From: Vermamoeba vermiformis
Taxonomy: Eukaryota
Length of the DNA stretch: 64,000 nucleotides
Assembly: GCA_045837725.1 (NCBI GenBank)
Contig: JBEWZL010000278.1
Location: 124,001 to 188,000 of the forward strand
Direction: 5' to 3'
A program made the position numbers and the translations under genes. The notes under the pieces were generated by a model, which saw nothing but the letters and a program-made list of their open reading frames with translations, was not told the origin of the DNA and did no database searches. Below, in pieces: positions 12,241-62,300 of this stretch; position 1 is the stretch's first letter, and each line of letters begins with the position of its first letter.

Positions 12241-14499
12241 TTACTCTTCTTCGCCGTACGCAGGTTCCTCACCCATCTCAATCTCGTACTATGAAAATTG
12301 GTGACGTTAGTTAACGCTGCACAATTAAATTGAAACAATAAAAAGCACTTACGGGGTCATCTATAATAGGAACTAGGGCCACACATCGTCCTAATTGCAC
12401 GTATTGCTTTAATTGTTCGACGGATGTGACAGCGTAGACGTCTTTATCGCACTTGTTGCAATGTCGTCTATCACCGTCAGTTGCATCTAATTGATAATAC
12501 GATAGTGGACATTTGAAACCAAATTCGCAATTCTCTGAAAACAAATCCAACCGTCAGTACAAATAAAATTAACATAGCGGATCTGAATATTACGCACCAA
12601 TAGCAGGCTCCGTAGGTCGCTCTCTGAACCTTTCATATCGGACTTTGAAGAATTTAGCCCAACTTTGCATCTTCAAGTTTGGATTCTGATCGGGGAACAG
12701 ATGCATGTAAAGTTTGTGCCAAATAGCGTTGTTATCGGCCACGAGCTGATGGAACTTCTTGTTGACCAACGATACGCACAATAATGTAAAGGCAGCGGAG
12801 TGTGAAGCATGCTAAGAAAAAAACAAGTCAGTACAAATGCTGGATGTTGCTCGATCCTGAAGCTTACATCAAGAATAATTCGCAGAGTTTCAGTAGGCAA
12901 GTTGCTAATATAGCAGTTCTTGTCAGCTTTAGGCCACTCGTTAATATCCCAGACAAATTCCGAACTGCCAAAGTTGTATCGAACGCGGATGTCGCTTCCA
13001 ACAAATCCAAGCGTTGGGAAGCAATCCATTCCACCTGCAACCCTCTTCGTTATGTACCCGACGAACTTGCCATTTACAGTATAGAACACCTTGCGTTGGT
13101 TGAACGAGTCCATGGCAAGACCACATCCAACAACGTCGTTCACTTTGAACGCACCTCGCTCCCCGTCGCTCGTGAAGTTGAAGCCAACAGTGCCGTTGTT
13201 GAAGTAGCCGAACGAGTTCTGCATGGAGCCCACGAGTTGACTGGACTCAAATCTTTGGTCGCTGAAACCAATCGAAAGCGTTTCGTCCGCTATGAAAAAC
13301 GCGTATGAGTATAAGTTCATAATACACCAAATAGGGTAATAATTGTATGGTGTATAGTAGGCGGCACCTACGTTTTAGTGATAGTATAGTGACTTCATAA
13401 TAAGGCAGCACAGTCGCTAGACGGGGGAAGAAAGAGTCTGCTTGAAGTGACTCGGCCTTTGGCGCTGTGATGGTGAGTATGTTGCCTTCAAGAATTGCTT
13501 TTGTTTTTTTGTTGAATTTGAAGAACGTTGGTATTTTATTCTCGGCCTAAAAATTATAAGCAGTTAAAAACCGGATGCGGATGGCGCGTACCGGAAATTT
13601 CTTTTCGTTACTTACGAATGGATTATGAACGAAAGGAATTCCTTTGGTACCAAAGTTCACTTGGATATTTTCTTGCGGGCTGTGCAAGCCAACCATTGGA
13701 TACAACTTGTCGGGAAAAGCTTGCATTTTGTACGTCGGCAATGTTTTCTTTGTACCATCGGGAAATACGAAGAATATTGATTCTAAATATACATTAGCTC
13801 ATATCGCAAAATTTACAAGCAATTTGGGCCAAATTTATCGAACGGATGTAGCTTCAATTTTAAAGACTTGGCGAGATACTTACGCGCTTCAAAATCAACA
13901 CCACATCCTACTGTAGCACCCTTTGCAGCCCACGCAGGTCCAAACTTTTTAATCACTTCAGCGTCATCGCAGAAAGCAATACCATCGTCGCCGTGAAATC
14001 CGAACGTTCCTGTGAATGTAATCTTAGCAATTATTGTGGACGACTATATAGAACGTCTTGTACGTACCTTTAGTCCATCCAGGTTGCTTGTCGGCTGCAT
14101 CTTTTTCGTTCTTTGATAAACCAATTGCGATCGTGCCTCGAAGACCCCGCGAAATAACGGTCACCTCTAATAAATTGGAAAATGGTCAACAATAATACAC
14201 TAGTAATAGGAGAGTTGTAGATCAATAAGGTAATTGAATTGAATTAAAATTTAATTTTTTTTTGAGATTTACCTACCGAAATAAAATCGCTTGTCGTTTA
14301 CTGCTTCCCAAGCAGCAGTTGATTTAAAACAAACAACTTCAGGATTGCACTCTTTATCAATGCTAACAATGGCATTGGCCATGTAGCCAATGGTACAGAG
14401 CTTGCTGGGCTGAAGATCGTCAAACTGGATGAAATTCTTGCCGAACGGCTTTTTGAAGCATACTATCGGCTTTTTATTATTCTTTCCGAATGAAAACAT
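12241..14499 (-). CDS. Tandem SPRY domains + F-box + C-terminal Cys-rich domain
   Basis: SPRY1: RFYFEV..IAIGL..QPGW..FGFHGDDG..LYPMVGL..VNFG. SPRY2: YYEV..LVGSMQNSFGY..DVVGCG..FYTVNG..FPTLG..YNFG. F-box ISNLPTETLRIILD..SLVNKKFHQLVADNNAIW. C-terminal NCEFGFKCP..RHCNKCDKDVY..GRCVA. Confidence 0.85.
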
Positions 14500-20753: not shown

Positions 20754-23601
20754 ATGAACCGAATTAACATAAAACCGTTCTTATTGGCTTTTATAATAGC
20801 AAGTCAAGTGGTCACCATTGTATTCTCTGCGCATCCAGGAAGCAGAAGCCAGGCTGCAACATGGTATTATAATGGTAAACTATGGATGTTCGGTGGCATA
20901 GGTTTGGACGAGACTGCTACTACTGGTACGGATCCGCTCGTAAAGTCTAAAATTATTTTTATAGCAATTGATAGAATATCTTTAATAGAGGATGTTTTGA
21001 GCGATATGTGGAGTTATGATCCCACTACGAACGAATGGTGGTTCGAAATGGGCGATAAAGTTGCAGGTCAGCAACCATCCGTCAGCGATCAAGGAACGTA
21101 TGCCCCGTACAACAATCCTGGCGCTAGAAGATACATCGTGCTCATGGACTGATGCAACAAATACATTATGGCTTTTTGGAGGATTCGGCACATTACGTAA
21201 ATTATTTATTTTTTAATCTTTTAAAATTTAAAGTTAAACTTTTATTATTACAGCGTTTCCCAATTTCCCTAGCGACGTATGGAACTACGATCCATCACTT
21301 AATCAATGGAAAGTGGCGCTTAAGGGTTCATATAACAGCTCTTACCAGTCTCCGTATCAGATCGGCCCTCGCTTTTCGCACCAGTGCCTGCCTTCATTGG
21401 ACGGAAAATTCGTCTTTGTGAACGGCGGAACTGGTATCGATTCTACAAATCAGACAGGTATATCAAGACCAAGCATTTTATTGACCCGTTTTTTTGGATC
21501 TGATCCACAAAAGTGACGTTTTGACACTCGAGGAATTCTATTACTAACATTTATTATTTAGTTGTTTTAAACGATTTGTGGTCGTATTCTCGCGAAAACA
21601 ATGCCTGGACATTTGTTAGTGGCAACAGCACGGGTGGTTGTTCGGGAACACTCTCCGAAGGCGTGCCTTCTTCAACCGATTATCCGTCCTGTGGTGATCG
21701 TATGGCCTCGTGGACCAATGAAAATTCAGAGTTGTATTTTATCAATGGTCGGTCAGATTTCTACAGCTATAACGAGGTCCTGCGCTACTCTGTCAACGAC
21801 ACAGCAGGCTATTGGACTTTGTTTGGCCACGGTGATCTGACTGGTCGAAAAGTCTCTGGAGCGGTGCGAGATATGGGCAAGGCATGGCTGTTTGGAGGTT
21901 ATGGCACCGATATTAGTGACAGAATTGGTAAGTAACTGCGTTTTTGAACTTGAAATTTTTGAGGTCACGCGTGTCACGCGATTGACTGACACTTTGACAG
22001 GTCTCCTCGCAGATCTATACGAATGGGATGGTACCACGTGGAAGTACTTGACGGGCCCTAGAACACTTAATGCACCGGGCTCTTACCCCGCACAACCAGG
22101 ATCTGGTAATAGCTCTACTTACCCCGGATCTCGTCAAGATCCAATGATGTGGCTGGACAGCGATGGCAATCTGTGGTTGTTCGGTGGCAGTGGGTTATGG
22201 CGAACAATCCAATGTGACTGGCAGTTTAAATGACATGTGGAAGTACACGATGTCAACCGGAGTTTGGACTTGGATCGGTGGCAGCAAATTGACCAATCAG
22301 AACGGCAATTACACCAACGATCCTCTTCCACCCGCTGAGCCACCTAGCTCTCCAGTAGCAATCGAACAGCCGTACAGTGGTCCCTCCAGCAACGTTACTG
22401 AGCCCGATCCTGGTCTGGCTGTCGCAGCAAAGATCGCCATTGGTGTCGTGGTGCCTGTCGTAGTGATTGGCGTTGGGCTATTGGTCCTACTTTTGCTCTT
22501 GAAGAAACGCAAAGACAAGAAGAACAAGACCAAGAAGACCACTACAACGTCAGTGCCTTTGTCGCCCGTGCCCAAGGGCTCCAAGTACGATTCGATCCAA
22601 CCCAAGCCCAACAGCACTTACACGCACATCGGTGGTCCTGATGCAATGACACCGACACCCACGTCAACTTCAGCACAGTACGTCCCTGTCAGCGACAACA
22701 GATTGATTTCTTACACTTCGATAACTCTCGACCAAGAGATTGGAGAGGGGTCGTTTGGCAAAGGTCAGTAGCCGTTAGTCAAGTACTTTGACCAATTGTT
22801 TAATGTTTTGTTAGTGTACCTTGGTAAGCTCAGAACGACCAAAGTAGCCATCAAAGTTGCAAATACGAAGATGTCTCAAGACGAGTTCATCAGGGAGGCC
22901 AACTTCCAACTGGCCATTCCTCCACACCCGAACATTGTGCAGCTATTAGGTATCTCTATTGATGGTCCACAGCCCTTAGTCGTGCTTGAATACTGCAATG
23001 AAGGCAGTCTCGACAAAGTTTTGTTCGAAGGAGACAGGCTGAGGACACCAGCGGAACAAATCGCCCTTGCCGAAGCTGTTGCACGAGGCATCGATCATTT
23101 GCACCAAAACAACATTGTGCACAGAGATCTTGCTGTCAGGAACATTCTGTTGCACAAAGGCGAGCCGAAAATATCCGATTTTGGCATGTCACGAAAACTC
23201 AAAGAAGTGTCACAAGTCGGCAAGACCGCTGCTACGATTGGTCCGTTGCGATGGATGGCGCCTGAAGCACTCGGCAAACAATTGTACAGCACCAAGTCAG
23301 ATGTGTGGTCGTTTGGCATGATCTTGTTCGAGATTGTTGCCCATGAAGAGCCGCACGTACATGAAGACTTAATTAGCGTTGCTATTAAGATTCGAGATGA
23401 AGGATATGTGCCTAATATTCCTAATGACTGTCCTCAAGTGCTTCGTCAAGTGATGCAGATGTGTTGGAAAATGGATCCGAATGAACGACCTGTAAGAGAA
23501 AAGATATTATCTCGCTGCTAATTGTAATACTAACGCTATTTATATAATAGGATATGGGCACAATTTGCACGATGCTCGAAAGTTCTGCAACGTCTAATTA
23601 A
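20754..23601 (+). CDS. Receptor kinase: signal peptide, Kelch-type propeller ectodomain, Pro-rich stalk, TM helix, tyrosine-kinase-type domain (paralog 1)
   Basis: Repeats PGSR..W..G.LWMFGG.G..LSDMWSY. TM IAIGVVVPVVVIGVGLLVLLLLL-KKRK. Kinase GEGSFG, VAIK, HRDLAVRN, DFG, GPLRWMAPE, SDVWSFG. Apparent 1-nt frameshifts near 21135 and 22195. Confidence 0.9.
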
Positions 23602-23820: not shown

Positions 23821-26800
23821 ATGCAGCGCTATAAAAGAGAATCATTTGTACTCGCCTTAATTTTGGCTTGTCTATTGATCAATACTGTTAAATCCGCGAT
23901 TCCTGGCGGTAGGTATGGCGCTGCGTCTTGGTTCTACGATAATAAACTATGGATGTTTGGCGGAAAGGGATGGGACGAGACATCAACGTCGGGTAAGTGA
24001 ATCAGATTGGCGGGATCAATTGATTTATTATTTCTTTTAAATTTAACGATTATTTTAATATTTAGCCGGTCTGTTGAGTGATATGTGGAGTTACGATCCA
24101 AATACAGGTGCTTGGACGTTCGTTGCTGGCAATAAAGCCATAAATATGATGGGCCTTGCAGGAAGCCTGGGATCGTACAGCCCTAACAATAATCCTGGTG
24201 GTATCCTTGAGCAATGTTCATGGTTCGATGAACCAACAAAGCAGTTTTGGATATTTGGCGGCCAAGTCGCTATCACGCCTTCAGTCGGTAAGCCAAAAAA
24301 AACTTTAAATATATTTTATTTTATAAAATAACAATTATTGCAGCTTATACTAATCAGGTGTGGACGTTTGATCCGAATACTACTCAATGGGCTCAAATGT
24401 TCAGCGGGACATCCGTTGGCTCTTTCGGTCCAACTGTCTTTCAGCCAGGACCACGAGCGCTACACAAATGCGTATCAATGGGCCAATCAGATGCTTATAT
24501 AAGCGGTGGCTATGGACACGACACAACATTAAATCTTGGTAAGTTACAACTGCGAAAAAATATCACCGTAAATCTCTTTGACACGTGTCAACTTGAGTTT
24601 TTGCATAGTGAGCGATCCATATCTGCCGTTCAACCTCAAATCGAAGCTCTTTATTACACGTGTCATACTCCACGGGATTAACATCCGTATATTTCTTTTG
24701 ACACTTTGACACTTAAGGTTCAACCTTTTGTTTTTATTTTAAGCGGAAACTTGATTGAAATTTCACAATAACGAAGGTTCCTTAACCTAATATCAACGTT
24801 CGTCATTGTAACATTGCTCATTTCAGGTTACTTGAATGATTTGTGGTACTTCAACGCGAGTGGATGGACTTTCATATCAGGCAACGACACACGTGACTGT
24901 GCCAGCACTTTGAGCGCATTTGACGCGCCCTCAGCGAGCGAATATCCTGCTTGCGGTACACGCATTGCAGGCTGGGCCACAAGCCCTGCTGACCTTTACT
25001 TTGTCACGGGTTTAGCGTACAGTGGCTACCTCAACGACGTGTACCAATACACGGATGGACAGCCCAGTACTTGGACCTTGTTGCACCCTGGTGATTTGAC
25101 CAAACGTGTGGACTCTGCCTCGACGAGTAGCAATGGCAAGGCATGGCTGTTTGGAGGCACTGGCAAGACCTTCAATGACACTGTTGGTAAGAGTTAACGA
25201 CCTTTAATTAAGTCTCAGATATCGCGTTGAATGTGCTAATATCTGCTATCGAACGTTATGGTGGGCAGTTTAGCGTGGAAGATAATTGGTATTGTTACGC
25301 GTGTCACGTGTGGCTGAAATTTTGACAGGTAGCCTAGCGGATCTGCTCGAGTGGAATGGCACGGCTTGGAACTACTTGGCGGGCTCTCAAACGGCTAATA
25401 CTGCTGGGTCTTATCCCGCACAGCCTGGCACTGGAAACTCGTCCACTTACCCTGGTAGCAGATCCCAGGCAACTATATGGCTGGACGGTGCGGGTGATTT
25501 GTGGCTGTTTGGCGGCTTTGGCTATGGTTCATTGTCAACAACAGCTGGCTCTTTGAATGACCTGTGGAAGTACACGATGAACACAGGTGTTTGGACTTGG
25601 ATCGGTGGCAGCAACAACATCAATCAGAACGGCAATTACACTGCCATACCTATCAGTACCCCCGCAAATAATCCTCCTGTCAACACGCCTATCGAACCAC
25701 CAGTCACCGCGCCTGTCAATCCCCCGCAAGACTTGCCTCCAACTAGTTCTCCCGTGACACCTCCGACCGATGTTCCATCTTCAAATGAAGTCAATGTACC
25801 TACGTCAGTGCTGCCAAGAGATGCTCAGATTGCTATCGGCGTCGTAGTACCCGGCGTTGCCGTTGGAGCTGGACTGTTGGTGCTGCTTCTGTTGTTGAAG
25901 AAACGCAAGAAACAAAAGGCAAACAAGTCCTCTACAACGACTTTAGTGCCGCTCGGTGACTTCAAACCTGACCCTCGCTACGGAGCCGTTGACACCACGG
26001 CCAATGCTTACTCACACATGGAGGGTTTAGCCGTGGGCTCTTACGTAGACTTGCCTGCAAATGAGAACAACAGACTTATTCCTTATGCCTCCGTCACTTT
26101 GGAGAAAGAAATTGGCGAAGGCTCGTTTGGCAAAGGTACGTACTCGAGACCGTGAATAGACTGAGGTTAATAGAATTGATTTATTAGTGTTCTTGGGCAA
26201 ACTTCGAACGACCAAAGTAGCCATCAAAGTTGCAAATACAAAGCTTCCTCAAGACGAGTTCATTCAGTGAAGCCAACTTCCAACTCGCCATTCCTCCACA
26301 CCCGAACATTGTGCAGCTATTAGGTATCTCTATTGATGGTCCACAGCCCTTAGTCATTCTCGAGTACTGCAACGAAGGCAGTCTCGATAAAATTCTGTTC
26401 AAGACGGAAAAATTAAGATCGCCAGCGGAACAAATCGCTCTTGCAGAAGCTATTGCCACGAGGCATCGATCATTTGCATCAAAACAACATTGTGCACAGA
26501 GATCTTGCCGTCAGAAATATTTTGCTGCATCACGGTGAACCGAAAATATCCGATTTTGGCATGTCACGAAAACTCAAAGAAGTGTCACAAGTTGGAAAAA
26601 CAGCGACTACTATTGGTCCATTGAGATGGATGGCGCCTGAAGCACTCGGAAAACAGTTGTACAGTACCAAGTCAGATGTGTGGTCGTTTGGCATGATCTT
26701 GTTCGAGATTGTTGCCCATGAAGAGCCACACGAACACGAAGACTTAATTAGCGTTGCTATTGGCATTCGAGATGAAGGATTTGCGCCTGCTATTCCTGAC

Positions 26801-29092: not shown

Positions 29093-30828
29093 TTAATCGA
29101 CTCTAGAGCTTACGTACGACAAAAAGTGTTCTAAATAAGGCAATTTCTCTTTGACTTCTTGAACGAAAGATTTGGACCAATCAACTGGCGGCGAGAAATA
29201 GAACTGTTGTAACCTTGTTAGGGCCGTTATAGTGTACCCCTTGCATTGGTGCATTAAATTGTTCAATAATGTCAAATGTTGTAGTGCTGTAAAATTAAAC
29301 AATTTCGTGCCATCTTTCAAGTTGTACAGGGTCAATTCGCGCAATGATGTGAGCGTGCTAACGCATCGCCAGAAGTAGTTCGTGTTATCTACACTAATAG
29401 ATAGCGAGGTCACTGAAGGCAAGTTGAAATTAGCCACATGATTGCCTTGGGAACTAAAGTGCAGCTCTTGCAATCGGGTCATGTTCGCGGAATAAAATTT
29501 TGTTGGAGATTTCCAAGAAAGTGAAGTCAACTTTGTTAATGCATAAATACTCGATACTTGGACATCCTCTGTTATTTTGGCAAGCTGATGGAGCTTCTGA
29601 AGGTTTGTGAGTTTTGAGAGATCTCTGAATCCGGTGACCTTCGTGAAGGAGTTCAATATCAATGCCGTTAGTCGCGTAAGTGACATTATAGGCTCCATAT
29701 CGACAACATCGTCATAATACTCGTATTTAATTGATAAGTACTCGAGACTGTGTAGTTGCGCCAAGGACCAAACTTGAGTCGGGTACAAACACTTGATTGA
29801 TAACTCCTTTAATCCTATCAATGGACTAAGATGTTGATTTGCACCAACTTGTAAAGTGACATTAATATATAGCTTTTCTAGCGCTGTTAATCTCGATGCA
29901 TCATCGACTTGATTTACGCATAGACTTTTCAAAGTGGCTGGATTTCTTAATGTTCTTATTTTGAAATGAGACAGGACTGTCAAACTTGTAACATTTGATG
30001 GTATATCAATTACGCCATTATACTGCACTTCTAAGCTTTCTAAGTTGGTGTACTTTGCCAAACTGACAGGCGGACCAGATGAGGCATAACTCTTCAATGC
30101 TTTAAGGGATGGATAGTGTTCTAAGGCATTCGTTATATTGCAATCTGCCTCTAGTTTCGTTAAATTTGTATTAATTGAAAGAGGAACGAAAGGATCTCCG
30201 CGAGTTTGTAACAACACTAGTTGTGGCATCAGTGTTAAATAAATGCTTTGTAGATTGTCTGTTACTAACTTCGTGACATTAGGGATGTGCTTTATATCGT
30301 TGATATCTAATTGGGCTATTGTTAATTGCTGCAAGTTCGTCGCTGGATTCGGAAAAAATGTTTTGAGCGGTGCCACCACAGCTTTCGAGGGTTGTGTTGT
30401 ATGGAGTGGATATAACTCTAATGAGGTGATATTTGTTAAGATAAATATTGTCTTGAGGTCGTCTGGCACTAGTTTGTAGGTTTTGTCGAATCTAAGTCCG
30501 ATCAGCTCTGGATGTCGGCTGAATCGTGTTACAACAGCATTGAGTTCGTTGGATAATATGCACCCTATTCTAAAATATGTCTTATTGACCACTTCACACC
30601 AAACAGAGTTGACCAAACGTAGATTTGTTTTTTGATCTTCCGACAAAAATGACAGGATCAATTCTACGATCTCCGGAGGAATATAGAATTCTGTTATCTA
30701 AATTTTTGTTATTTTTTTACGATTTATTTTATTAAATTTCGTATACCAACCTCGCTACTGCTGGTTGCCTGATCCAATCTGGGCTTCTTTGCCGGGTGCG
30801 TCTTTAAGTAACCCCCGCTTCTCTTCAT
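29093..30828 (-). CDS. F-box + leucine-rich repeat protein
   Basis: IPPEIVELILSFL..NLRLVNSVWCEVV. Repeats LTNLQKL, LTALEKL, LTSLRELTL. Confidence 0.8.
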
Positions 30829-39821: not shown

Positions 39822-42800
39822 ATGAGCGAACCTCCTTTGAAACGACAAAAGGTTTCCCATACGATTGACGAAACACAAGTCACACCTCTTAGTCATTCAA
39901 ACGGAAACAATATCAACTACATGGTAAGGGTTTCTGATTCGCAACTCAAATTCTAATTTTAACCCAATTAACAATAGAAATTTAAATCCTATCCACAAAT
40001 TATTTATTAATAATACTATGCATGCTCCGTATAGTATTATTAAATACAATTTCGAAATTTTTTGTGGTGGTTACTAATATTTATTTTTTATGAATTTAGT
40101 CTAAACCAGCTCTTTCCGCTTCAAAAGAACTCCAATATCAAAATGAGTTCAGCCGTCTTTTGGGCGCTATTGGTGAGGAGGCTTTGAAAAGACTTCAATC
40201 AAGCAGAGTGCTCTTGATCGGCTTGAAAGGTCTTGGTGTTGAAATCGGTAAGTAATTGAGAAAAGTCCTATTCGTTTTTCTGTTATTAATACAATATAAA
40301 TTTCCATCACCGCTATTATTCTCGATATTTTGGAATTTTTTTTGGGCTCGCCATCTTAAATCTGCGTTTTTCATTATTTTCTGACTTATCGTTTACAGCC
40401 AAGAACATCGTTTTGATGGGTGTTGCCTCATTGACCATTCATGACCCGAACCCCGTTAAGATTGCCGATCTTTCCTCTCAGGTAAGACTCGCCATCCGTA
40501 CTTAAAATTAATTCAAATATTAACGTAATTATGATTATAACAGTTCTTCTTGGCTGAGGAGGATGTCGGAAAGAACAGAGCCGAAGCCTCGTTGAAGAGA
40601 CTCACCGAACTAAACGAGCGTGTCGAATTGAGCATTTACAACGGCGAATTGACCGAAGACTTCCTCAAGAAGTTCAAGGTCGTTTGCATGACTAACACCA
40701 AGTCTGCCGCTGAAATGTTGCGCATCAACGAAATTTGCCACAGAAACGAAGTCCTCTTCATTGCTGGTGATACCCTCGGTACCTTCGGCTTTGTTTTCAA
40801 CGACTTCGGTGTCGGTCCTGAAGTTGAAGACCCTTCTGACAAGACCAAGCGCACTCACTTGGGCTTCAGAATCAACGACCGCAACGGAGAGAACCCTAAG
40901 ACCGCTTACATTGAAAGCATCACCAAGGACAAGGAAGGCATCGTCACTGTCGTCGAGTCTAACCGTCACGATCTCGAAGACGGCGACGTCGTGCGCCTCA
41001 CTGAAGTCCAAGGCATGACTGAAGTCAACGGCAAAGAATTCCCCGTCTCAGTCAAGGGTCCATTCACCTTCTCCATTGGAGATACCACTGGCTTCGGCGA
41101 CTACATCAAGGGTGGTTTCCTCGAACAAGTCAAGCAACCCATGCACCTCAAATTCGTACGTACAGTTTTATTCGACCTATTGACTTTCAATTGTTCTAAT
41201 TGTGCGCTGTTAGGACCCCTTGGCTGCTTTCTGGGGCAAGAAGGTTCCCTTCGAGAAGTACTTGTTGGCTGACTACGCTAAATTCGACAGACCCGACCAA
41301 TACTTTTTGTTCATCCAAGCCATCTACACTTTCGCCGAGAAGCACAACGGCAACTTGCCTCGTCCTTGGAACGAGGAAGACGCTCAAACCGTCTTGAACC
41401 TCGTCAACGAGTTCAACGGCAAGTTGGAAGAGAAGGTTGAGCTCAACGATAACTTGATCAAGAAGCTCGCCATGACTGCTGCTGGTGATCTCTCACCTAT
41501 GGCTGCTACTTTTGGTGGTATCATCGCTCAAGAAATCATCAAGGCCGTCTCTGCCAAGTACACTCCTATCAACCAATTCTTGTTCTTCGATAGCATCGAG
41601 TGTCTCCCTGAGACTTTGGCTGAGAGCGACGTCAAGTTGGTTGGCACTCGTTACGACGGTCAAATCGCCGTCTTCGGTAATGCCTTCAACGACAAGATCT
41701 TGAACTTGAAGTACTTCTTGGTCGGATCTGGTGCCATCGGTTGCGAGATGTTGAAGAACTGGGCTATGATGGGTGTCGGCTGCGGTCCTAACGGCATGGT
41801 TAACGTTACTGATAACGATACTATCGAAATCTCCAACTTGAACAGACAATTCTTGTACAGACCTTGGGACGTCTCCGTAAGTTTTTACAGCTAATTTGAC
41901 TCCTGTGTCGCAGTACTAATTACGACTTTGAACAGAAATTCAAATCCGCCACCGCTGCCGAGGCCGTCAAGAAGATGAACCCTCACATGAACATCAAGGC
42001 CTGGACTGTCAAGGTCGAGCCTGCCACTGAAGACATGTTGGACGACGAATTCTGGACCAACTTGGACGGTGTCACTAACGCCTTGGATAACGTTCAAGCT
42101 CGTCTCTACGTCGACAGCCGCTGCATCTTCTACAAGTGCGTAAAACTAATATTTCGACCCTGATCGGCTTTAATTAACGCATCCCGTTTTAGGAAGCCTC
42201 TCTTAGAGTCTGGTACTTTGGGCACTAAGGGTAACGTTCAAGTCATCGTTCCTGGCTTGACTGAAAGCTACGGTACTTCCCGCGATCCCCCACCAAAGGA
42301 AACCCCTGTCTGCTTGTTGCACTCGTTCCCCAACAACATTGAGCACTGCTTGCAATGGGCCAGAGAAGACTTGTTCGAAGGCAGCTTTGCCAAGGACCCC
42401 GAGATTGTTACCAACTTCTTGGAGAAGGAAGGCTACTTGAACACTTTGACCCCCGTCATGAAGTTGCCTACCCTCGAGACCCTCGAGCGCTGCTTGATCA
42501 ACGGTCCCAAGACCTTCGATGACTGCATCATGTGGGCCCGCAATGAATTCGAGAAGCGATACAACCACGCTCCTCTTCAATTGCTCCACAACTTCCCCTT
42601 GGATTACGTCGATTCCAACGGCACTCCTTTCTGGTCTGGTGCTAAGCGACCTCCTAAGCCTTTGACCTTCGATGCCAACGATGAAACTCACTTGTCCTTC
42701 GTTGTCTCCGCCACCTTCTTGCGTGCCTACGCTATGGGTCTCATTCCTAGTAAGTTCCCGCGCAAATTTTTTGTGCATAACGGAGACTAACGGCTAACAT

Positions 42801-51453: not shown

Positions 51454-53992
51454 TCAAGGATTTGGCGCTGGTACATCGATAATCAATTGTTTTTTCAGCA
51501 GCCGAAAGTATTGTTGGATCTGCTGATAAAATACACTGTAATGCCGCTGTACAGACTTCATTTTGTTGCTAATATCTTTCAATTCGGATTCTGTTGCCTT
51601 TGGAAAAAATACATCCAATTTTTGCAATTCTTCGGTCTTAGCCGAGATGTTGATGAGAATATCGTTCCATATCTTTCGTTCTATTTTTAGCTTATCATAC
51701 ACTTGGAAATATAATTGACTCAATAACCGTAAATAGACGGTTAGTTCCTCTAAAAAAAAGGTTAATTTTTTGTTGTCGGATGTGGTTTTGGTAAAGGAAT
51801 TTCTTACCTATCACGTGATCTTCGTTCATTAATTGCTCTAATTTTTGTTGCACGGAGGCGATGTGTTGCTTATTTGCCAGTCCTCGCCGGTCAGCGCATA
51901 AGGGTGACAGCGGGATCAGTAGCGGAACTAGTAGGACCGCATAGTAACGAAGTGTCATTAGACTTGAATAACCTCCTAGTTCATCGAAAACTATATATAA
52001 GACGATTAATAAGTTTCATATAATGTGCATAATACTGTTGAACTTGGTACGTTATAAAAAGTGATCCCTTGTGATGTGAGGGTCGGATCCCTTGTTAGAT
52101 GCGTACTTAGGACGACCTTTTTGGCCGTAGAAAAGTATCTATATATATCACGTACATTTCTTTTTATGATCATTGCCGGCCTTTAACGCGAGGGAGTTCG
52201 ATTTGTTCAATAGATATTGCGCGAAGTTCTTAATAATCCTTCCAGCCTACAGATCCGCACGATCGTTAGTACAAAATTACGTTAAACTCAACATGTCGAT
52301 TAACTATCTAACCATCCATATGGTATGTAATGATAGTAATATAGACTAGTATTGAATATGGGCGGAGTGGCAAGTGATTAAGTTTGTGGATGTAGCGTAC
52401 CTTTTGTGAGATGATCATTTCGTTCTGCAGCACTTCGGTCATATGAACCACTTTGCTCTTGATGTAGTTGCCGCGCTCAGTGTTGGTGAGTACTTTGCCT
52501 TCATCCTCCCAATCAATCACAATCGCTCCGAGTGTCATGTCAATGTGATCAATCGTTTCCCTAGAATTTTGAAAAAAATCTTAAGCTTTTGAAATATTGA
52601 TGCGAATTATTGTGACGTAATAATACGATAAGTGGGCGTAATAATATTATTTAAACTAAAATTATTAAAAGCTGCAACGCGACATTTCCTATTTTTAGTT
52701 CACATGACCAAAATTATTACGTCCGAATAATCTTATATGTAATACTATTAACTGCACTAATGGTGATATTTGATCGAAAATAAAATTGATAAATTATCTT
52801 ACCTGAACGAAAAACAGAACTCTTTGATACCCTCCATTAGCTTCTCGATCTGGTCGTTGTACGCGTACACCCCGAGCTCGACCCAATCAGTTTCGAGATC
52901 GTTTTGAGGGCTAGTCGCGAGTTCACTATTGTCCGATAGTGTGTCTGGGCTTGTGCTCGCTTTCAAGGTCACGGATGTGGCACTCGAGCGTCGATTATCG
53001 ATTAGCAAATGTTGGCTTAGAAATGATGCAGGAATAAAATCTAAATGAATTTCTTCGTAGTCTTGCATTGATAATAATTCTGCGCCGGTCATATCAAAGT
53101 CTTTAAGTATCGACAAGAGCGCTTTTGTCGCTGGATCCACCTGCCAAATAAAAAATTAAAAATGAGCATAAGCAGCATATAAATTAAATAAAGTATATTA
53201 AGTGAATTGTAGCGACAATAAAGTTAACGAAAATTGGCCTGAAGCAAAATGGGATCAGAAAGGGGACCCGAGCTTAGACTGGGATCGTATCGTGTTATTA
53301 TAGCCGCAAGTATCACTACTAAAGTAATTTAATTGTCCTATAAGTGCGTACCTGTCGTTCGAATAGTTTGAACAGCATTGGGTCTGTCGATATTTCGGGA
53401 TCTGCTATTACCGCGCTAAAATATCGCTGTAATACTTTTCTCCGCTTTACGCAGTCATCATATGTTGGTGGAAATATTGTTTTTGATGGGAATACTGGTA
53501 ATTGAGCCTTCCTCTTCGGATATTTTTGGCAGATCTACGCAACAACAATAATAAATACACTTGAACGATATTAATTATCAAAAAATTAATCCAATTATGA
53601 TGAAGGAATTTTTGTGATCAAAGCTACAGATATAGGTTGTCCAAAACGGTTCAATAATTTGCGCCGGATTTTTAATCCCTCCTTGACTTACGTATTCATG
53701 GAACTTTAATAGCTTTTTATAGCGCACCCATACATGATAATCTTCGACTGATTCTACTTTTGCTTCAAATGCCTTTTGATAAAAGAAAATGGGTTAGAAA
53801 TCGAAACCTGCTGTTTTATGGCTGAGATCAAACTAAAAACATTAACCCGCTTTCTTAAATATATGAACATACAAAGTACGGCTTAATAACGTTGTTTTCT
53901 TTTTCTAAAAAGGATTTGATCTCCAGAAAAGTGACACCGATGATGGTAAATCCTTTCTCTTTTGCTGTATTGCGGTGTATTGTATGGTTCAT
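51454..53992 (-). CDS. PX-domain protein with helical/coiled C-terminus
   Basis: KPYF..VWVRYKKLLKFHEYICQKYP..LPVFPSKTIF..CVKRRKVLQRYFSAVI..DPMLFKLF. Confidence 0.7.
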
Positions 53993-54452
53993 CGTTTAAT
54001 CATCATTATGCGTGTTAATATGTTATTCTTCGGCAATACGGAATAAATGGTAAAAAGGAAACAAATTTTGATTATTGACATTATGACAGGATCTAGAATA
54101 CTTGCCCAAATTAGCGTAAGAATCTTGTCTCTTATGACTCATAGTTAGGTCTAGTTATCGGGTCATCCTTTGAGGTGCTTAATGTGCAGATCCCGAAGAT
54201 CTGATCGTTGCACACGATTTTTTGTCTTGGTTTTGGTGTTATTAATTCTGTTGGTACATCACTTAATTTATTTGACGTTCAAATACAGTTGATAATATTC
54301 CTCGTACTTGTTTTTTGTCGAACACGAAGCATTACAAAATTTAGAGCGCGAAACACCATCCGCTCTCTTGAACTTCGATGTGCAACACAATACAGCCCTT
54401 ATTTAATCAAAATTAATACAATATCAAAGCCACATTCTGTTTATCGAGTAAA

Positions 54453-57400
54453 ATGGGTAAGTGCTGTTCTCTTAGCTCCAGAAGTGATTTTCTCGATCTT
54501 CAACCAACCTTAATTACCAGCTAAAATATTGAAAAAAATAACTGAATAGACCAATATAATTATGTTATGAAATCAACGGATATTAACAAAAAGGATCTTA
54601 CAGATCCACTGAAATTTTCATAACAAAATATTCTCGTCATAATTTCGAAAAAAATAATTGCATTAAAGAAATATGTAATCTTGAATTATATTAATTGGTC
54701 TACGGAACGAGATCTAATTCAGTTAATGTTTTTCAGCTTCGGTCGTGTACGTATGGGGCGAGAATGCTTCAGCTCAATTAGGCCTTGGCGATTATAAACG
54801 CCATTCAGTGCCCGAGACCTCGTCTGTATTAGCGGAAATAGGGCCTATAGTTGATATTGCTTGCGCTGAAAAATTTGCCATAGCCATCAATAGTACGTGA
54901 CCTCTATACAGCTTAGTATAATAGCCAAATATTTATTATAATATTTTTACAGCTCAGGGCGACGCCTATATTTGGGGCTCGGTGCCGACACCGACGGCGA
55001 ATTTTCTGTATTGGACATTAGGAACGGATAACATCACTGAAAGACCATTGAAAATTGAACTTGTAAGTCAATCGTTAATTAGAAATTCAAATATTAATTT
55101 TAATTACAGCAAGGTTATACTTGGAAATCAGCCGCAGCTTGCCATAGAAATATTGGTTTGGTTACAAGTACGCGCTAAAAAAATTATCACCGCGTGCCAT
55201 CAACTTTTGAAAGAGTTTTCTATGCTATAATAATGAGACTTCGATTAATGATTGGTGATATTTATAGAGAAAGGCAAGGTCGTTATGCTCGGTGATTCTT
55301 CTATGGGCCAGTTAGGCATCGGTCGAAGATCCGCTCCTAACAACCCTGCCGAAGTCGCCAATCTTACGAACATCGAAAAGCTCGCAGTTGGATATTTTCA
55401 TTGCCTCGCTCTTGATAGTAAGTCAAACATTACTAACTACGTAGGTATTTAATATTTACATTATTGACAGACGAAGGCAATGTGTACAGTTGGGGAGCGG
55501 GATCCGGTGGAAAACTTGGTACTGGCGAGACTTCTGACGCCTTGTTTCCTGTGAAAATTGCTGGACTGAAAAGCGTTAAAGACATTGTCGCAGGCAAAAC
55601 TGTGTCAGCGGCACTGACCACTGATGGTGAAGTGTACACGTGGGGCAACGACAAGTCTGGTGCATTAGGATTGAAAGGAGTCGTCGAGACGTTCACACCA
55701 CAAAAAGTAGAGATAACCGAGAAGATTGCTTCGTTGTCTTTGTACGAGAGTCATATTGGTGCTGTCTCTGAGACTGGAAAGCTGTTCATGTGGGGTCGTG
55801 GCACGGAAGGTACGAGGCCTCACTATTTGACCTGTTTGTTCTAACAATGTGATTATAATTATAGGACAACTTGGTTGGGGAAAAATTGATAACACCGCTA
55901 TTCCTGTGTTGCCTACAATCAAAACAGATGATCCGTTCGTGCGTGTCTCGTGCGCGATGTATCATACTATCGCAACGACTCAGAGCAACAAAATTTACGC
56001 GTTTGGCCAAGGCTTGTCCGGTCAATTAGGAGTCTCTGCCCAGTACGTACTAATAGATCTATTGTTATTATTGAGTGCTAAGACATTGTTTTGTTGTAGG
56101 TGGAAGACTGAGCTCATCCCTAGATCGTTGGAGATTAAACCAAAAGAGGTCTTGTTCTTACGATCTGGTGGCAAGTTTAACTTCTTAGGGACAACAGGTA
56201 CGTATCAATATATAAGACCTAATTCCTTATTTGCTCAATGTTACGTTAGAAATTGCTGAGGAAATCGAAGGAGAGAAAAAAGATGCTGACTCAGAGTGGG
56301 AAGTGGAAAAAATCTTAAATAAGAGATATGGAGACAACGTTAGTACCAAGTTCATATTAATTGTACTAGAGAGCTGATGATCTATTTATAGGGCCGAGTA
56401 CAATACTTAGTTAAGTGGAAGGATTACCCGAGCGAACAAAACAGCTGGGAAGGCAAAGAGAATTTGGCGGGCTGCAGAGATATGATTAAAGAATATGAAA
56501 AGGCATTGGAAGATGCTCAGAATGATAATAGAGTACGTAGTCACTATCATCAAGTATTATTTTATTAATTTTATTTCTCGCAGAAAAAAATTCGTCAAGA
56601 GGTCAAAGCGGCTTCTCAAACGAAAATACCAAGGTATATGCCATCAGTCGATGACTTGGATAGCGAGAGCAGCGGGTCTTCCGAAAGCGAAGAGAGTGGC
56701 GAGAGAGAGCGGTGAAGAGTCGGGATCTGAAAAGTCAAGCGAAGAGAAACAAAAAGAACTGCTGAAGAAGAAAAATGCCGAAAAGAAGAAAGAAGAGCCG
56801 AAAAAGTCGAAAGAAGCGAGTATTAATAATGTTAATATAAATAACACAGAACGAACGGAAGACACGAAGAAAAGCAACGGATCAAGCTCTTCCGCGAAGC
56901 CGACAAAAGAAAAGGAAAATGGATCCCAAAAATCAAAGAAAGAGTCTGCAGTTACCCAGACTTCGTCCAGTAAAAAGAAAACAGAGGATAAGTCGAAGCC
57001 AGAAATCAAAAAGAAGTACGAGGATCTGATCTCGAAACAAAAGGCAAGACTTCAACCGAGACAATATAAAGAACGAAAAAGGCCATCCGATGATTCAGAT
57101 GTACCAAGCTCTGACGCTTCAGAGGATTCTTCGAGATCAGGATCCGAAAGCGCATCCGGTTCTGACGATGAATCTGAAGAGGTTCTATCGCAAAAGAAGC
57201 TGAAGCCTCTTCCCAAAACGAAAGTTTGAGGAGAATACTCGAACAGCGAAGCACGACTCCGTAGAAATGGAGGACTCAGCTGAATCCGGTCCAGTCGAGC
57301 CCGAGAAAGAAGATAAGAAAATTGTTAAGAAGAAGGATAAATCATCACCACCACCAAAAGAAGAGAAGACTAGCGTAGTAGATGATATGGACATCGACCT

Positions 57401-59149
57401 TAACGAGCCACCTCCAGAGCCTGTTATTGTCGAAACTAAGCCTAAACCAGCTCCCTCGCCAGCAAAAGCAAAAGCAAAGCGCGTTATCGTAGATGAAGAT
57501 GAAGACGATGAAGACGTTAGCGGCGAGACAAAAGAAGTTACGATTGTCTCCAAGAGAGCACCGAGTAATAACAACAAGACTACGCCTGAACGAAAGTCGC
57601 CGAAAAATAACGAGAAAAATTCGAAGAAAACTAAAGAAGAAAGTACAAAGAAGAGCACTCCACCTAAAAAGGAACGAGAGCGACTAAAGACAAAGACTGA
57701 GGTTGAAGTTGCTCAACAAGTCGATGATAGCGAAGAAGAGGCTGGATCTGGTGAAGAATACGAAGTCGAGAAGATTATTGGACACAAATACGTTAAAGTA
57801 AGGTCTACCTATACTCTATTAGATCTATACTAACATTTTTTCAGAACAAGATTCATTATTTTGTCAAATGGAAAGGCTGGCCATCTTCGTCTAATACCGT
57901 ACGCGCCTTGAAGTCGCTACAAATAGTGTTAACTAACAATTATATGTAGTGGGAGCCGTTAAAGCACCTTGAACATTGCCAACCTGCAATCGATGCGTAT
58001 GAACGAGAATTAGCTGAGAGGGTGAGTGCGCATCCGCTTACATTTCTCAAACACCTTTATTCTTACGCGATTAATATATAGGAAGAAGACGAAAATTCAG
58101 AAGACGAAGAGTTGACTAAGCGCAACAAGTTGGCTAAATACAGTGGCCACGTACCGCCAAAGTGGATCGGCAAGGCTCGCGAAGAGAAAGGAAAAATGAT
58201 TTATAAATGCGTCGAAATTGATGGAGTAAGACTATACCACACACAGACATATTTAACTGAATTACTGTGGCTAATATTCGCGGTTTAGGTTCAATACAAG
58301 ATTGATGACGATGTCTTTTTGACCGTAATCGATGGTGATACGGCCCATCGAGCTTATGCAAGACTAAAATCGCTTTGGGAGGTACGTATAATTTTAATAT
58401 GATAAATAGACTTGCTTGCCAGTTGAGCGGAGTTTCAATTTAAAAATTAATTTTTATTTTGAAGTTTCTCGACTTGCTTATCAAAGAATGCAGGTATCAT
58501 CTAACAAATATAATATAATTAGGATCGTAAAGGCAAACAATGGGGAATAGTGACTTGGTACTTCCAATGGCGAGACATGACTTCGAAACAAAAAGAAAAG
58601 AAGAAGGCTACGCTCGATGAGAAAGTAGATTGGTCGCTAAGAAAGAGACGAGAGTTGTTTGTGGGCACTAAAGAAGAACATATCTTGATAAATCGCCTTG
58701 AGGGCAAGATCTGGTAAGAAATCATCAGATTCGGATCTATTTTGTGCGGCCAAGATCCACAGGCCGTAGCGAGATATTTTAACGCAATTTTATTAAGTAT
58801 ATAGTCGATACTAATAATCGTCGTATAGCATCGTAAACTACGCGTTGTATCTGAAACAACTGAAGCAAGATCTGGATCTCCCTGAAGAAGACGTCTTCTT
58901 TACGAATGAAAACTATGACGAGCATATAGGCTTCTCACCATTAACAGACGAGCAAAAAGAGATGTTTTGTAAGTACAAGTTGCCTCTTCTTATTCTAGGA
59001 CTTCGTTTAATTATTAACCTATGCATCCAGCCACCTTGCAAAAGCCGACTGAAATTAGCGTTACTCGCGCGGCAAAATGGTGGCAAGAGCACACGAGACC
59101 TGCGGCTAAACAAGAACCACCGAAGAAGAAGCAAAAGACGAAGAAGTAG
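54453..59149 (+). CDS. RCC1-repeat propeller + chromodomain + low-complexity linker + chromodomain + BAH domain protein
   Basis: RCC1: VYVWGENASAQLGLG, VYSWGAGSGGKLGTG, LFMWGRGTEGQLGWG. Chromo1: EWEVEKIL..YLVKWKDYPSEQNSWE. Chromo2: EYEVEKII..YFVKWKGWPSSSNTWEP. BAH: DGVQYKIDDDVFL..YARLKSLWE..VTWYF..RELF..LEGK..DVFF..NYD. Two apparent frameshifts in the linker (~56705, ~57225). Confidence 0.8.
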
Positions 59150-59315
59150 TTAATAGAATTGGAGATTCAATTAGTACTAAAGCTGTTGCTATTTAATATT
59201 GTTTATATTAATTTGACACTATTGTTTGTTCAGAGTTTTGCGTCGTGCGATAGATCCACCAAAAAATTTAATTTCCGAAGGTGAAGAACACGCTAGTAAT
59301 TCATTAAGTTTTGTC

Positions 59316-62300
59316 ATGACAGATACTGTTAATAATATTATTGCCGATGTCATTTTAACGATAAAAGCAGAAGGTACAACAATTTACAAAATTTTTAGAT
59401 CCGGAAATATCCGACCTCCGTAATTTTTAAAAATCCAAATATTGATTATGTATTATTAGGAACACATATAAAAGCATTCCAAAGATATGGAAAGAAAATC
59501 AAAAAATTCACTAGATCTTATCAAGTTAGTCAAACCGTTTCGCAGCTGATCGAGGAGGGAGACGACGTCGTATTCAATTTTTTAAGAATTATATACATGT
59601 ATGCGATCCATCTTGGATTGAAAGAAGAGAGCTGGTTTTTAGGAATCATACAAATTCACTTGAGAAGGTAAGTCTTGCGTTCAATTGTAATTTAGAGCAC
59701 GGGTTTATGACTCAGTATTTAGGCCATAATACCAAAGCATTGGAATATCGCAAATTTTCTTGTTAAATTCGCTTTAGAGAGTGATTCGAAACAGCTCGAA
59801 AAAGATGAGTTTTGGGATTCGAAGCTGGAGCACAAAGCAACGCCAGATCAATGGGGAAAAGCCATTAGTACGTTAATTATAATCATTATACCGTATTGTA
59901 CTTAACTCCCGTTAGAATTGGTCGTCAAATCTTGCATTCCATCCGATGTCCACTACGGAATTTCTAACCTGACAGTTGGGCACCTATGGGTAAAGCGTCT
60001 AAGCCACATGAAGTCAGTGATTCACGACGGCTTTGTGACCATATTAGACTTGGTTAAGTATCCAACAGCGTTCATGTTGATGATTGTATTAGGCGTTTAT
60101 GAGGTGCCTCAAAAAACGGGTGCGTACTTGGTAAATTCGAGAATCTCGAACTAGGCAACAACTCATCGTTTATTATAGTATATAATGTAACTCTTCCATA
60201 TGCTGTATGGAGTTCTGGTGCGAAAAAAGAACAGCGTGCAATGTTGTTACAATTTCTTTTCGAAGCAATGGACCCGAAGCAATTTGACCTCCCCTGTGGC
60301 CCTAACAACGTACCGCTTGTTTACGAAGTATTAAGAGCTGCTGACTTATATATCCTTGAACGAGTGCATCTGCTAAGGACTAAAATTGATTGTGAGTACA
60401 GACGGAGAATTGTTTTGCGGATCTAACGAGGTAATGTTTGTAGGGAATATGAAAGATGAAAAAGACCGAAATATCGGACATTATATTCATCCGACGTTAA
60501 TGTTTAACGAGATCTTTCAGGCACAAGATCGACTTGTTTACGGCCACACGTAAGTAAAAAGTAAGTAACATATTACGGATCTGATGATATTTTAGAGCTA
60601 TTCATAAGAATACTCCAGCCATTGTTAATTTTCTGGATCAAAGAGAATGGATCGCCGATCATTATTTTGAAAGATATCCTGGTACGGTTAGCCATCGTTC
60701 CTTTTTGTTTTTCTGACGTTGTTCTTTGTGTAGAGATACTTCAGGCCTTAGACGTGTTGTTACAAAAAGACAAAGAGGCATTATTGAGTCATTTGGAAAC
60801 GACTGGCGACTTGTTCTTATTGGCGTACTGCATGAGTAAAGGGCACAAAGCACCGCAAAAGAACAACACTTGGAACGAGCTTTATGAGGGTACGTCTAGA
60901 TAAATAAAATGGTACTTAATTAATATATTCCTTAGTTTGGGCGTTAAATAACAAAAAGATGGAGAAACTAACGGATGCGGATGATTCGGGTATCAATGGT
61001 GCGGATCTGCGGTGTCATATTTACGAATTGCCCGATGAGATTATTGGTTTGATCGTTTTGAAAATCTCGTTCGAGGAAATGATGAACTTATTTTCAGTCT
61101 CAACGACCATGCATCAACTGTTTAAACGAATGACAAGTTCTTCGTTGTGGCGGGAGATCGCGACCAAACATTTCAACGCGCATAAACTCAACTACCTTGC
61201 TTCTCAACCAATCACTGATTGGCGCAGTCACGTGATCAAAGAAATGAGGTAAAACTCGTCCAAAAGAATTATGAAAGTATCATTAACGACCATTTTGTTA
61301 TTAGATGGCGAAAGAACTGGATTCATCAACGGTTCACTGAACGAACGGTTTTCACTGAACCGGATGGGAAATCGAAAGGGAATGTTTGTTTTGCTGTAGA
61401 CGACAACTGGTTTGTGAATACATCGGAGCTGAAAGTCTGTTGTTGGAACTGTCACACAGGTCAAACGGAGTCAATGCACCTTTCACGGGTCAACCTCAAC
61501 AACATAATAATAGTTGAATCGACACCCAATTCATTGAAAATTGCTATTATTGGAGTCTCGAGGAACAATGGAGGCATTATTGTCATCATCGCAGATCCGT
61601 TAGCGAACAGAGTTCTGAAGGAGATCCAGCCTCGTGTACCTGCCGACCGCGCGATACCATACTTTTTCAAGTATCAGTCTAAACTATGTTATTATATCGG
61701 TCCAGGTAATACCCATATATTCTGAAAAAAATAATAATAATATATTTATGTCCTATGGTTTCTATTCTAATATTATTTCTGGTGCAGAGCTGCAGGAAGT
61801 TGATATCGAGGCGGGAACAACAAAAGTAATCAAAGACATTCCAAAGGAAAGTGTTAAATCAATCGCAGTCAATAGCGAGAACAATTCGCTGCTACTTAAT
61901 CGACCTTCAGTTAAGACGAACTTTATGCTGGATGCGGACATGAACCTTATAGAGCTTGAACGAGCACCTGCCACGCAACATATCCTCGATAAGGCATTTA
62001 GGACGACAAATAGCCATTTAATTCCAGTTATAAATATGCTCGAGTTTGGTCAGTGGTTTGCGTCCATGAATGACAGCCCTGTAAGGACTTGCGTATTTAG
62101 AATGAAATTTCGCAGAAGAGCTCTATTATTAAATAACCATTGTATAGATATACCAATCGCTCATAGATAATCAAAATAGTCGAGTACTGATTAAGAAAGG
62201 GAGTGCTGGTATTTCAATGTTGTTGCATCCGAATCTGAAAACGTGGTACGCTGCGTGGAGCGATGCACCGCAAAAATTCGTGGCAATGAATAGTAGATAT

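Follow-up and report, generated by a model that had tools for sequence, protein, structure and literature searches.

Does a locus whose reading frame changes twice within a single exon still encode one protein, and which modules would that protein bring together? The question is raised by positions 54453-59149 of a 64,000-nucleotide stretch of Vermamoeba vermiformis DNA (contig JBEWZL010000278.1, positions 124,001 to 188,000; hereafter "the window"), in which an RCC1-like propeller is followed by a chromodomain, a charged linker, a second chromodomain, a BAH-like domain, and a basic tail. This order of domains had been put forward in a preliminary description made from the letters of the stretch, and it is found as proposed in one gene, matched by a spliced RNA contig and by two continuous open reading frames (ORFs) from relatives. 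We favor, with a probability of roughly 0.65, the reading in which one nuclear gene encodes a non-catalytic multivalent chromatin reader or scaffold of about 1115 amino acids, made up of the propeller, the two chromodomains with their charged hinge, a divergent BAH domain, and the basic tail.

Gene structure, splicing, and expression in relatives

The gene runs on the + strand from an ATG at 54453 to a TAG at 59147-59149 and comprises 18 exons and 17 introns, every one of the introns being GT..AG (17/17). The composition of the region is eukaryote-like, as are the introns, which are short (47-280 nucleotides), with donors that read GTAAGT or GTACGT and branch sites that are CTAAC-like. Twelve of the 17 are seen as spliced GT..AG joints in contigs of run X7, whose type is recorded as RNA by guess and which bears another organism label, with 95-99% identity to the window. 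Among them is the 52-nucleotide intron 56198-56249, seen as the joint 56197/56250, through which the propeller had been proposed to join chromodomain 1. Introns 56043-56099 and 58382-58522 (junctions 56042/56100 and 58381/58523) appear in X7 as loose ends. Raw RNA reads from runs X21 and X23 give approximate support to introns 58226-58288, 58382-58522, and 58969-59030, while introns 55063-55109 and 55168-55267 have no read support and were placed by collinearity with the relatives' transcript P0002 only.

X21 and X23 bear the species label of run X1, a set of DNA contigs in which the window's words are best represented and which is possibly the sample that the window came from. Only 31 and 50 of their reads were placed, mostly at 90-95% identity, and their loose ends, translated by eye, resemble the coding sequence of P0002. 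These reads place the expression of the 3' half of the gene in a more distant lineage. X1, X21, and X23 share one species label, yet with this identity and this likeness to P0002 the label seems to span rather divergent lineages.

P0002 (1106 amino acids) is the ORF of a Vermamoeba vermiformis Trinity transcript in EukProt, recorded as "ORF type: complete". It was found with exon 6 as the query, to which it is 86% identical, and it carries both the RCC1 and Chromo families. P0180 (1118 amino acids, also "ORF type: complete") is a second Trinity ORF from Vermamoeba vermiformis, either an isoform or an allele. The two differ inside the linker only: P0002 lacks 16 residues that P0180 shares with the window, and further on the two ORFs differ by 3-4 residues. 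Alleles, an alternative splice within the exon, or assembly variation could account for this. The parts of the gene are as follows, with the evidence for each in brackets.

54453-54456, 54737-54892, 54953-55062, 55110-55167, 55268-55417, 55471-55809, 55865-56042, 56100-56197, + strand: exons 1-8, RCC1-like domain with seven blades (Pfam, P0002 match, X7 joints)
56291..56505, + strand: chromodomain 1, in exons 56250-56338 and 56392-56532, split by intron 56339-56391 (Pfam Chromo; cage W/W/Y)
56197/56250, 56338/56392, 56532/56584, + strand: X7 joints around chromodomain 1 (spliced RNA contigs)
56584..57752, + strand: Lys/Glu/Ser-rich linker, inside the single large exon 56584-57797 (translation, collinearity with P0002)
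57753..58021, + strand: chromodomain 2 in three exons, namely the end of 56584-57797, then 57845-57898 and 57950-58021 (Pfam Chromo on P0002; cage Y/W/W)
57797/57845, 57898/57950, 58021/58082, + strand: X7 joints around chromodomain 2 (spliced RNA contigs)
58082..58968, + strand: BAH-like domain with a short acidic stretch ahead of it, encoded by exons 58082-58225, 58289-58381, 58523-58713, and 58829-58968 (phmmer, Atlas features)
59031..59149, + strand: last exon, a basic tail resembling a nuclear localization signal and ending in KKKQKTKK, then TAG (translation; X7 joint 58968/59031)

Two frame changes in the linker exon

In the window, frame 0 ends at the TGA 56713-56715, frame 1 is open to the TGA 57227-57229, and frame 2 carries the remainder. 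In each of these three open stretches the two remaining frames are full of stops, so the pieces look like one coding sequence shifted twice by +1. The shifts can be placed on single extra bases:

56703, + strand: first frame break, one extra base in the GAGAGAGAG run, a GA-dinucleotide run (base absent from X7 at 14.8 of 14.8 depth, and from X1 at 75.7 of 132.1)
57220, + strand: second frame break, one extra base in the context ACGAAAG (base absent from X7 at 14.8 of 14.8 depth, and from X1 at 89.4 of 89.4)

The preliminary description had proposed a single ORF through ~56705 and ~57225. The window itself does not contain it, as its coding sequence lies in three frames, but the X7 contig and the relatives' ORFs are continuous there. 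The X7 contig in question (1739 nucleotides) covers 56100-56195, 56392-56532, all of 56584-57797, and both chromodomain 2 exons, and it reaches into the first BAH-like exon. Exon 56584-57797 has 1212 letters in X7 as against 1214 in the window, and 1212, a multiple of three, suits the phase-0 borders of the exon. The P0002 and P0180 ORFs are both unbroken, and each of the three window frames is collinear with them. On P0002 the frames cover successive, non-overlapping stretches (residues 1-479 at 91% identity, 481-655 at 70%, and 657-1106 at 81%), and the junctions of these stretches coincide exactly with the two frame changes. Judged by these identities, the window would stem from a Vermamoeba-like amoeba. 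Because the extra bases are absent from X1 and X7 contigs and the ORFs of P0002 and P0180 run continuously and collinearly through both points, the gene most likely encodes one continuous protein of about 1115 amino acids; without the two bases, the exons total 1115 codons plus the stop. The frame shifts themselves are most likely consensus errors, or else private or very recent changes in this strain, and not a feature of the gene. Over 54000-59400, X1 falls into two haplotype-like sets of contigs, and the gap observations there are unphased.

Several observations weigh against this continuity. Both breaks stand in the window sequence itself, and at 56703 an X1 depth of 56.4 out of 132.1 shows no gap. 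Neither extra base sits in a long homopolymer. The X7 contig has six more small gaps in the linker, and its frame is known by net length only. The gene could then be truly broken here, either as a young pseudogene or split into an RCC1-like-chromo protein of 484 amino acids (stop at 56715) and a chromo-BAH-like protein, for which an in-frame ATG is available at 57268. We consider this distinctly unlikely. The base at 57220 is missing at the full X1 depth and both bases are missing from the X7 RNA, every other exon is undamaged, as is each of the 17 splice sites, and between the breaks a 171-residue reading frame has stayed open, with 70% identity to P0002. Two independent single-base insertions within 520 nucleotides, with no other damage, are better explained by consensus error.

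Two other mechanisms were considered and ruled out. Programmed +1 frameshifting does not fit RNA contigs in which both extra bases are lacking. A short intron spanning either break would need a GT..AG pair at a plausible distance and a sequence resembling a branch site, neither of which is present, and the X7 RNA is collinear across both points. Whatever their origin, the two breaks would lead automatic annotation to split or truncate the gene.

Propeller, chromodomains, and a divergent C-terminal domain

The domains were identified by running Pfam on 15 window exon pieces individually, and on P0002. Four window exons match RCC1 (2.4e-09, 6.1e-06, 2.7e-25 on 55473-55808, and 1.2e-07), including matches to the RCC1-like domain. 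On P0002, residues 5-360 align with positions 2-362 of the 363 in profile PF25390 (7.4e-66, 223.4 bits, cut-off 150), and the RCC1 repeat is matched at 5e-52. A full seven-blade profile match above the curated cut-off places the domain in the RCC1-like superfamily. Against solved structures, the propeller is closest to UVR8 (7.7e-52), RPGR (1e-39), HERC2 (9.1e-39), and HERC1 (7.7e-36); human RCC1 (4.9e-30), yeast Srm1 (3.8e-23), and Drosophila RCC1 (7.4e-21) rank lower. The protein begins MASVVYVWGEN, which by direct reading is already blade 1, with no tail ahead of it.

It had been suggested that the propeller might resemble the Ran guanine-nucleotide exchange factor, and the comparison does not bear this out: since its similarity to UVR8, RPGR, and HERC2 exceeds that to RCC1, it is to be classed, on similarity, as a generic RCC1-like domain of the UVR8/RPGR/HERC2 kind and not evidently as a Ran exchange factor. 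RCC1 binds nucleosomes, and the propeller is homologous to it, as the human RCC1 score indicates. An RCC1-type exchange factor, or a nucleosome-binding RCC1, could thus be imagined tethered to marked chromatin, with Ran-GTP being made at heterochromatin. Yet HERC1 as well as the three closer families outscore RCC1, neither RCC1 nor Srm1 is the closest relative among the solved structures, and the missing N-terminal tail points the same way. We regard such a tether as highly improbable.

Both chromodomains are recognized directly. The chromodomain 1 exon 56392-56532 matches Pfam Chromo at 5.6e-14 (52.2 bits, cut-off 25.1), and the chromodomain 2 exon 57950-58021 gives a sub-threshold match (0.0034). 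On P0002 the family is found in two stretches, above the gathering score both times (1.1e-36, 125 bits), the second (824-873) covering positions 1-52 of the 53 in the profile. Among solved structures, chromodomain 1, taken in its P0002 version, comes closest to Rhino (1.8e-13), Oxpecker (5.5e-13), and HP1 (2.9e-12), followed by CDY/CDYL; chromodomain 2 comes closest to HP1 (4e-11), LHP1 (8.1e-11), and CDYL2. The relatives, namely Rhino, HP1, CDY/CDYL, LHP1, MPP8, and CBX, are all methyl-lysine readers. The three-residue aromatic cages that had been noted, W/W/Y and Y/W/W, are both in the sequence. The W/W/Y of chromodomain 1 aligns with the Y/W/F of Rhino, in the columns that form the cage in HP1; the Y/W/W triad of chromodomain 2 was read directly by eye.

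No chromoshadow domain reaches the cut-off on P0002, where a partial match (E=0.024, 15.1 bits, cut-off 22.4) overlaps chromodomain 2. The protein is therefore not a member of the HP1 family. An origin of the chromodomains from a transposon (chromovirus) was also considered and ruled out, as Pfam finds neither integrase nor reverse transcriptase on P0002. The linker that separates the two chromodomains is about 380 residues long and looks disordered, with acidic Ser clusters and basic patches. Its P0002 counterpart (438-818) contains 18% Lys, 14% Glu, and 13% Ser, with an isoelectric point of 8.5, and the scan of the window exons found no Pfam family in it. At the end of the protein, the P0002 tail (1067-1106) has an isoelectric point of 10.4 and 25% Lys.

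The C-terminal domain had been called a BAH domain, a claim that stands in part: weak matches to DNMT1, RSC2, and PBRM1 and to BAH clusters of the Atlas speak for it, and Pfam does not recognize it. When the C-terminal 213 residues of P0002 are compared by phmmer with all solved chains, 24 sequences are returned at E<=10, and 22 of them are DNMT1, RSC2, or PBRM1. DNMT1 accounts for 17 (the best being the 158-residue construct 7lmk, E=0.0057, query 12-82), RSC2 for one (E=0.24, query 56-146), and PBRM1 for four (E=0.29-2.2, query 59-158 and 106-160); the other two, talin and an acyl-CoA hydrolase, are unrelated. The three families all bear BAH domains, and their sub-threshold matches are collinear along the query (12-82, 56-146, 59-158). 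In the Atlas feature search, whose scores are uncalibrated for parts of proteins, 23 of the 30 matches are BAH clusters, at 0.90-0.91 with 183-199 of 256 features in common. Three motifs that, on our reading, are typical of the BAH consensus occur in the usual order: WYFQWRD, then EVFVGTKEEHI..IEGKICI, then EDVFFTNENYDE.

On the other side, Pfam BAH (PF01426) is found neither on P0002 at E<=10 nor on the four exons at E<=1, the best solved match covers only the first ~70 residues, and folding failed, the single-sequence AlphaFold2 model of the region having a mean predicted local distance difference test (pLDDT) score of 36.9. These points would suit some other beta-rich module, in which case the protein would combine the RCC1-like-chromo-chromo part with a domain of unknown type. 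The agreement among three BAH-bearing families, the Atlas clusters, and the motif order makes that unlikely, and the C-terminal domain is probably a divergent BAH.

Proposed function, rarity, and comparison with known systems

If these assignments are correct, a mode of action can be proposed. The two caged chromodomains would bind methylated H3 tails, of the H3K9me or H3K27me type, and, being ~390 residues apart on a flexible linker, they could link two tails, or two nucleosomes, to each other. An additional contact, with the nucleosome or with a methyl-lysine, would come from the BAH-like domain, and the charged linker may contribute contacts with nucleic acids. The propeller would be the effector face, recruiting a partner protein or touching the surface of the nucleosome, and the basic C-terminal tail would serve nuclear localization. 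We infer a role in heterochromatin. It is tempting to go further and to see here a new class of heterochromatin scaffolds confined to Vermamoeba-like amoebae, whose three histone or nucleosome readers, the two caged chromodomains and the divergent BAH, would anchor the propeller on repressive chromatin. There the propeller would either promote nucleotide exchange on Ran or some other small GTPase, or compact nucleosome arrays by clamping the acidic patch. If true, this would directly link the reading of histone marks to GTPase signaling or to chromatin condensation, but we see it as a long shot.

No catalytic domain is found in the Pfam scan of P0002. The absence of a methyltransferase, already noted in the preliminary description, is confirmed there, as none is among the seven families listed at E<=10. 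That description also knew of no characterized protein with the RCC1-like-chromo-chromo-BAH architecture, and none was found in our searches of protein libraries and of the literature. The exon 6 search yielded 27 RCC1-like proteins among 639 candidates, and P0002 alone carries a chromodomain. With chromodomain 2 and the BAH-like part as the query, two of 941 candidates were retained among proteins of similar length, P0002 and a protein with five chromodomains; with the BAH-like part alone, among shorter proteins, there were two of 123, both exon fragments. A HMMER scan of 1.84 billion representative proteins, again with chromodomain 2 plus BAH, gave 5772 matches at E<=0.001. The best 150 of these all match through the chromodomain (query residues 1-115), and among them Pfam finds neither RCC1 (0/150) nor BAH (0/150), 111 having been scanned at E<=1e-6 and 39 at E<=1e-5. 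As these searches are word-based or swamped by chromodomain matches, absence elsewhere does not follow. The architecture is apparently restricted to the Vermamoeba-like amoeba lineage. The Atlas feature search with the whole protein gave no usable match. A metagenome scan returned three loci with 27-28% identity on the propeller, which were not used.

In the literature, as far as the papers found were available in part, none describes a protein with RCC1, chromodomain, and BAH, the works concerning nucleosome binders in general; nor, within the same limits, does anything on Vermamoeba vermiformis and chromodomains treat this gene. Searches on an RCC1-like domain combined with a chromodomain, and on chromodomain plus BAH in Acanthamoeba, returned nothing. 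To our knowledge, the chromatin of Vermamoeba, an amoeba that is common in water and serves as a host to bacteria and giant viruses, is essentially unstudied. If our reading holds, the gene provides a handle on heterochromatin in this organism, and a clear, transcript-backed case of protists assembling new multivalent chromatin readers from standard modules. According to the accessible part of a survey of reader genes, 92% of them hold a single reader domain, and the Chromo, PHD, and Bromo families have undergone lineage-specific bursts (bioRxiv 10.1101/2021.11.30.470311). The main text of this survey, in the portion available, does not mention "RCC1" (bioRxiv 10.1101/2021.11.30.470311). With such bursts already documented in that portion, no long-standing question is opened (bioRxiv 10.1101/2021.11.30.470311), and since lineage-specific shuffling of reader domains is likewise known from it, we rate the interest of the locus lower than the preliminary description did (bioRxiv 10.1101/2021.11.30.470311).

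Other genes are recognizable in the window. Upstream, on the - strand, an exon at 53319-53793 encodes a PX domain (Pfam 1.3e-6 on 53322-53534); this gene is divergent to the reader gene, with ~660 nucleotides between its exon at 53793 and the ATG at 54453. Two adjacent genes on the + strand, at 22148-23521 and 25286-26155, apparently encode receptor-like proteins. In each, the outer part is Kelch-like and is followed by a stalk rich in Pro and Ser, a hydrophobic span that carries the stop-transfer motif KKRK, and a tyrosine-kinase-like domain (PK_Tyr_Ser-Thr 5e-61 on 22772-23518; weak Kelch 4.7e-4 on 25286-26152). The ubiquitin-activating enzyme E1 is encoded in several exons at 40541-42790 (+ strand; ThiF, E1_FCCH 2.7e-28, E1_4HB 5.1e-18, UBA_E1_SCCH 1e-47). 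Large leucine-rich-repeat proteins are found at 3676-5247 (+ strand, with a weak USP7 ICP0-binding, ubiquitin-like region, 4.3e-5) and at 29093-30697 (- strand, with an F-box-like start, 2.3e-4), and a SPRY domain (1.5e-6) is encoded by an ORF at 12673-13374 (- strand).

Several known systems share parts of this design. The complete seven-blade domain is common to RCC1, UVR8, RPGR, and HERC2, the amoeba propeller being nearer to the last three than to the Ran exchange factor RCC1. HP1, Rhino, LHP1, and CDYL are nearest to both chromodomains (1.8e-13 to 1e-10) and keep the three aromatic cage positions, and HP1 also resembles the amoeba protein in the long charged hinge that follows chromodomain 1. 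However, the amoeba protein is without the chromoshadow domain, and HP1 is without a second pair of readers and a propeller. Among the best 150 of the 5772 matches, the nearest chromodomain relatives are protist multi-chromodomain proteins (e.g., P0028-P0049; 36-43% identity, 2-7 chromodomains each), which in place of RCC1 or BAH carry BTB, kinase, Ulp1, Pre-SET, bromo, or chromoshadow domains. In the wider set P0028-P0177, 2-7 tandem chromodomains are variously fused to BTB, protein kinase, Ulp1 protease, Pre-SET, bromodomain, PhyH, or an ADP-ribosyltransferase-like domain.

The plant chromomethylases CMT3 and ZMET2 unite BAH and a chromodomain in one polypeptide, two domains that jointly recognize the methylated H3 tails of nucleosomes. 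The amoeba protein likewise has a chromodomain and a BAH-like domain on one polypeptide, but it is without the C5 cytosine methyltransferase domain (Pfam, P0002), its two chromodomains are free-standing whereas the single one of the plant proteins is embedded in the enzyme, and it adds the RCC1-like propeller. Non-catalytic proteins in which BAH is paired with another histone-mark reader are also known, such as EBS and SHL (BAH-PHD), BAHCC1 (Tudor-BAH), and BAHD1, and they bind repressive chromatin. Here the partner reader is instead a chromodomain, present twice, and the probable BAH has diverged too far for Pfam to recognize it. Set beside these systems, the Vermamoeba protein is an unusual combination of known chromatin-binding parts rather than a revolutionary one.

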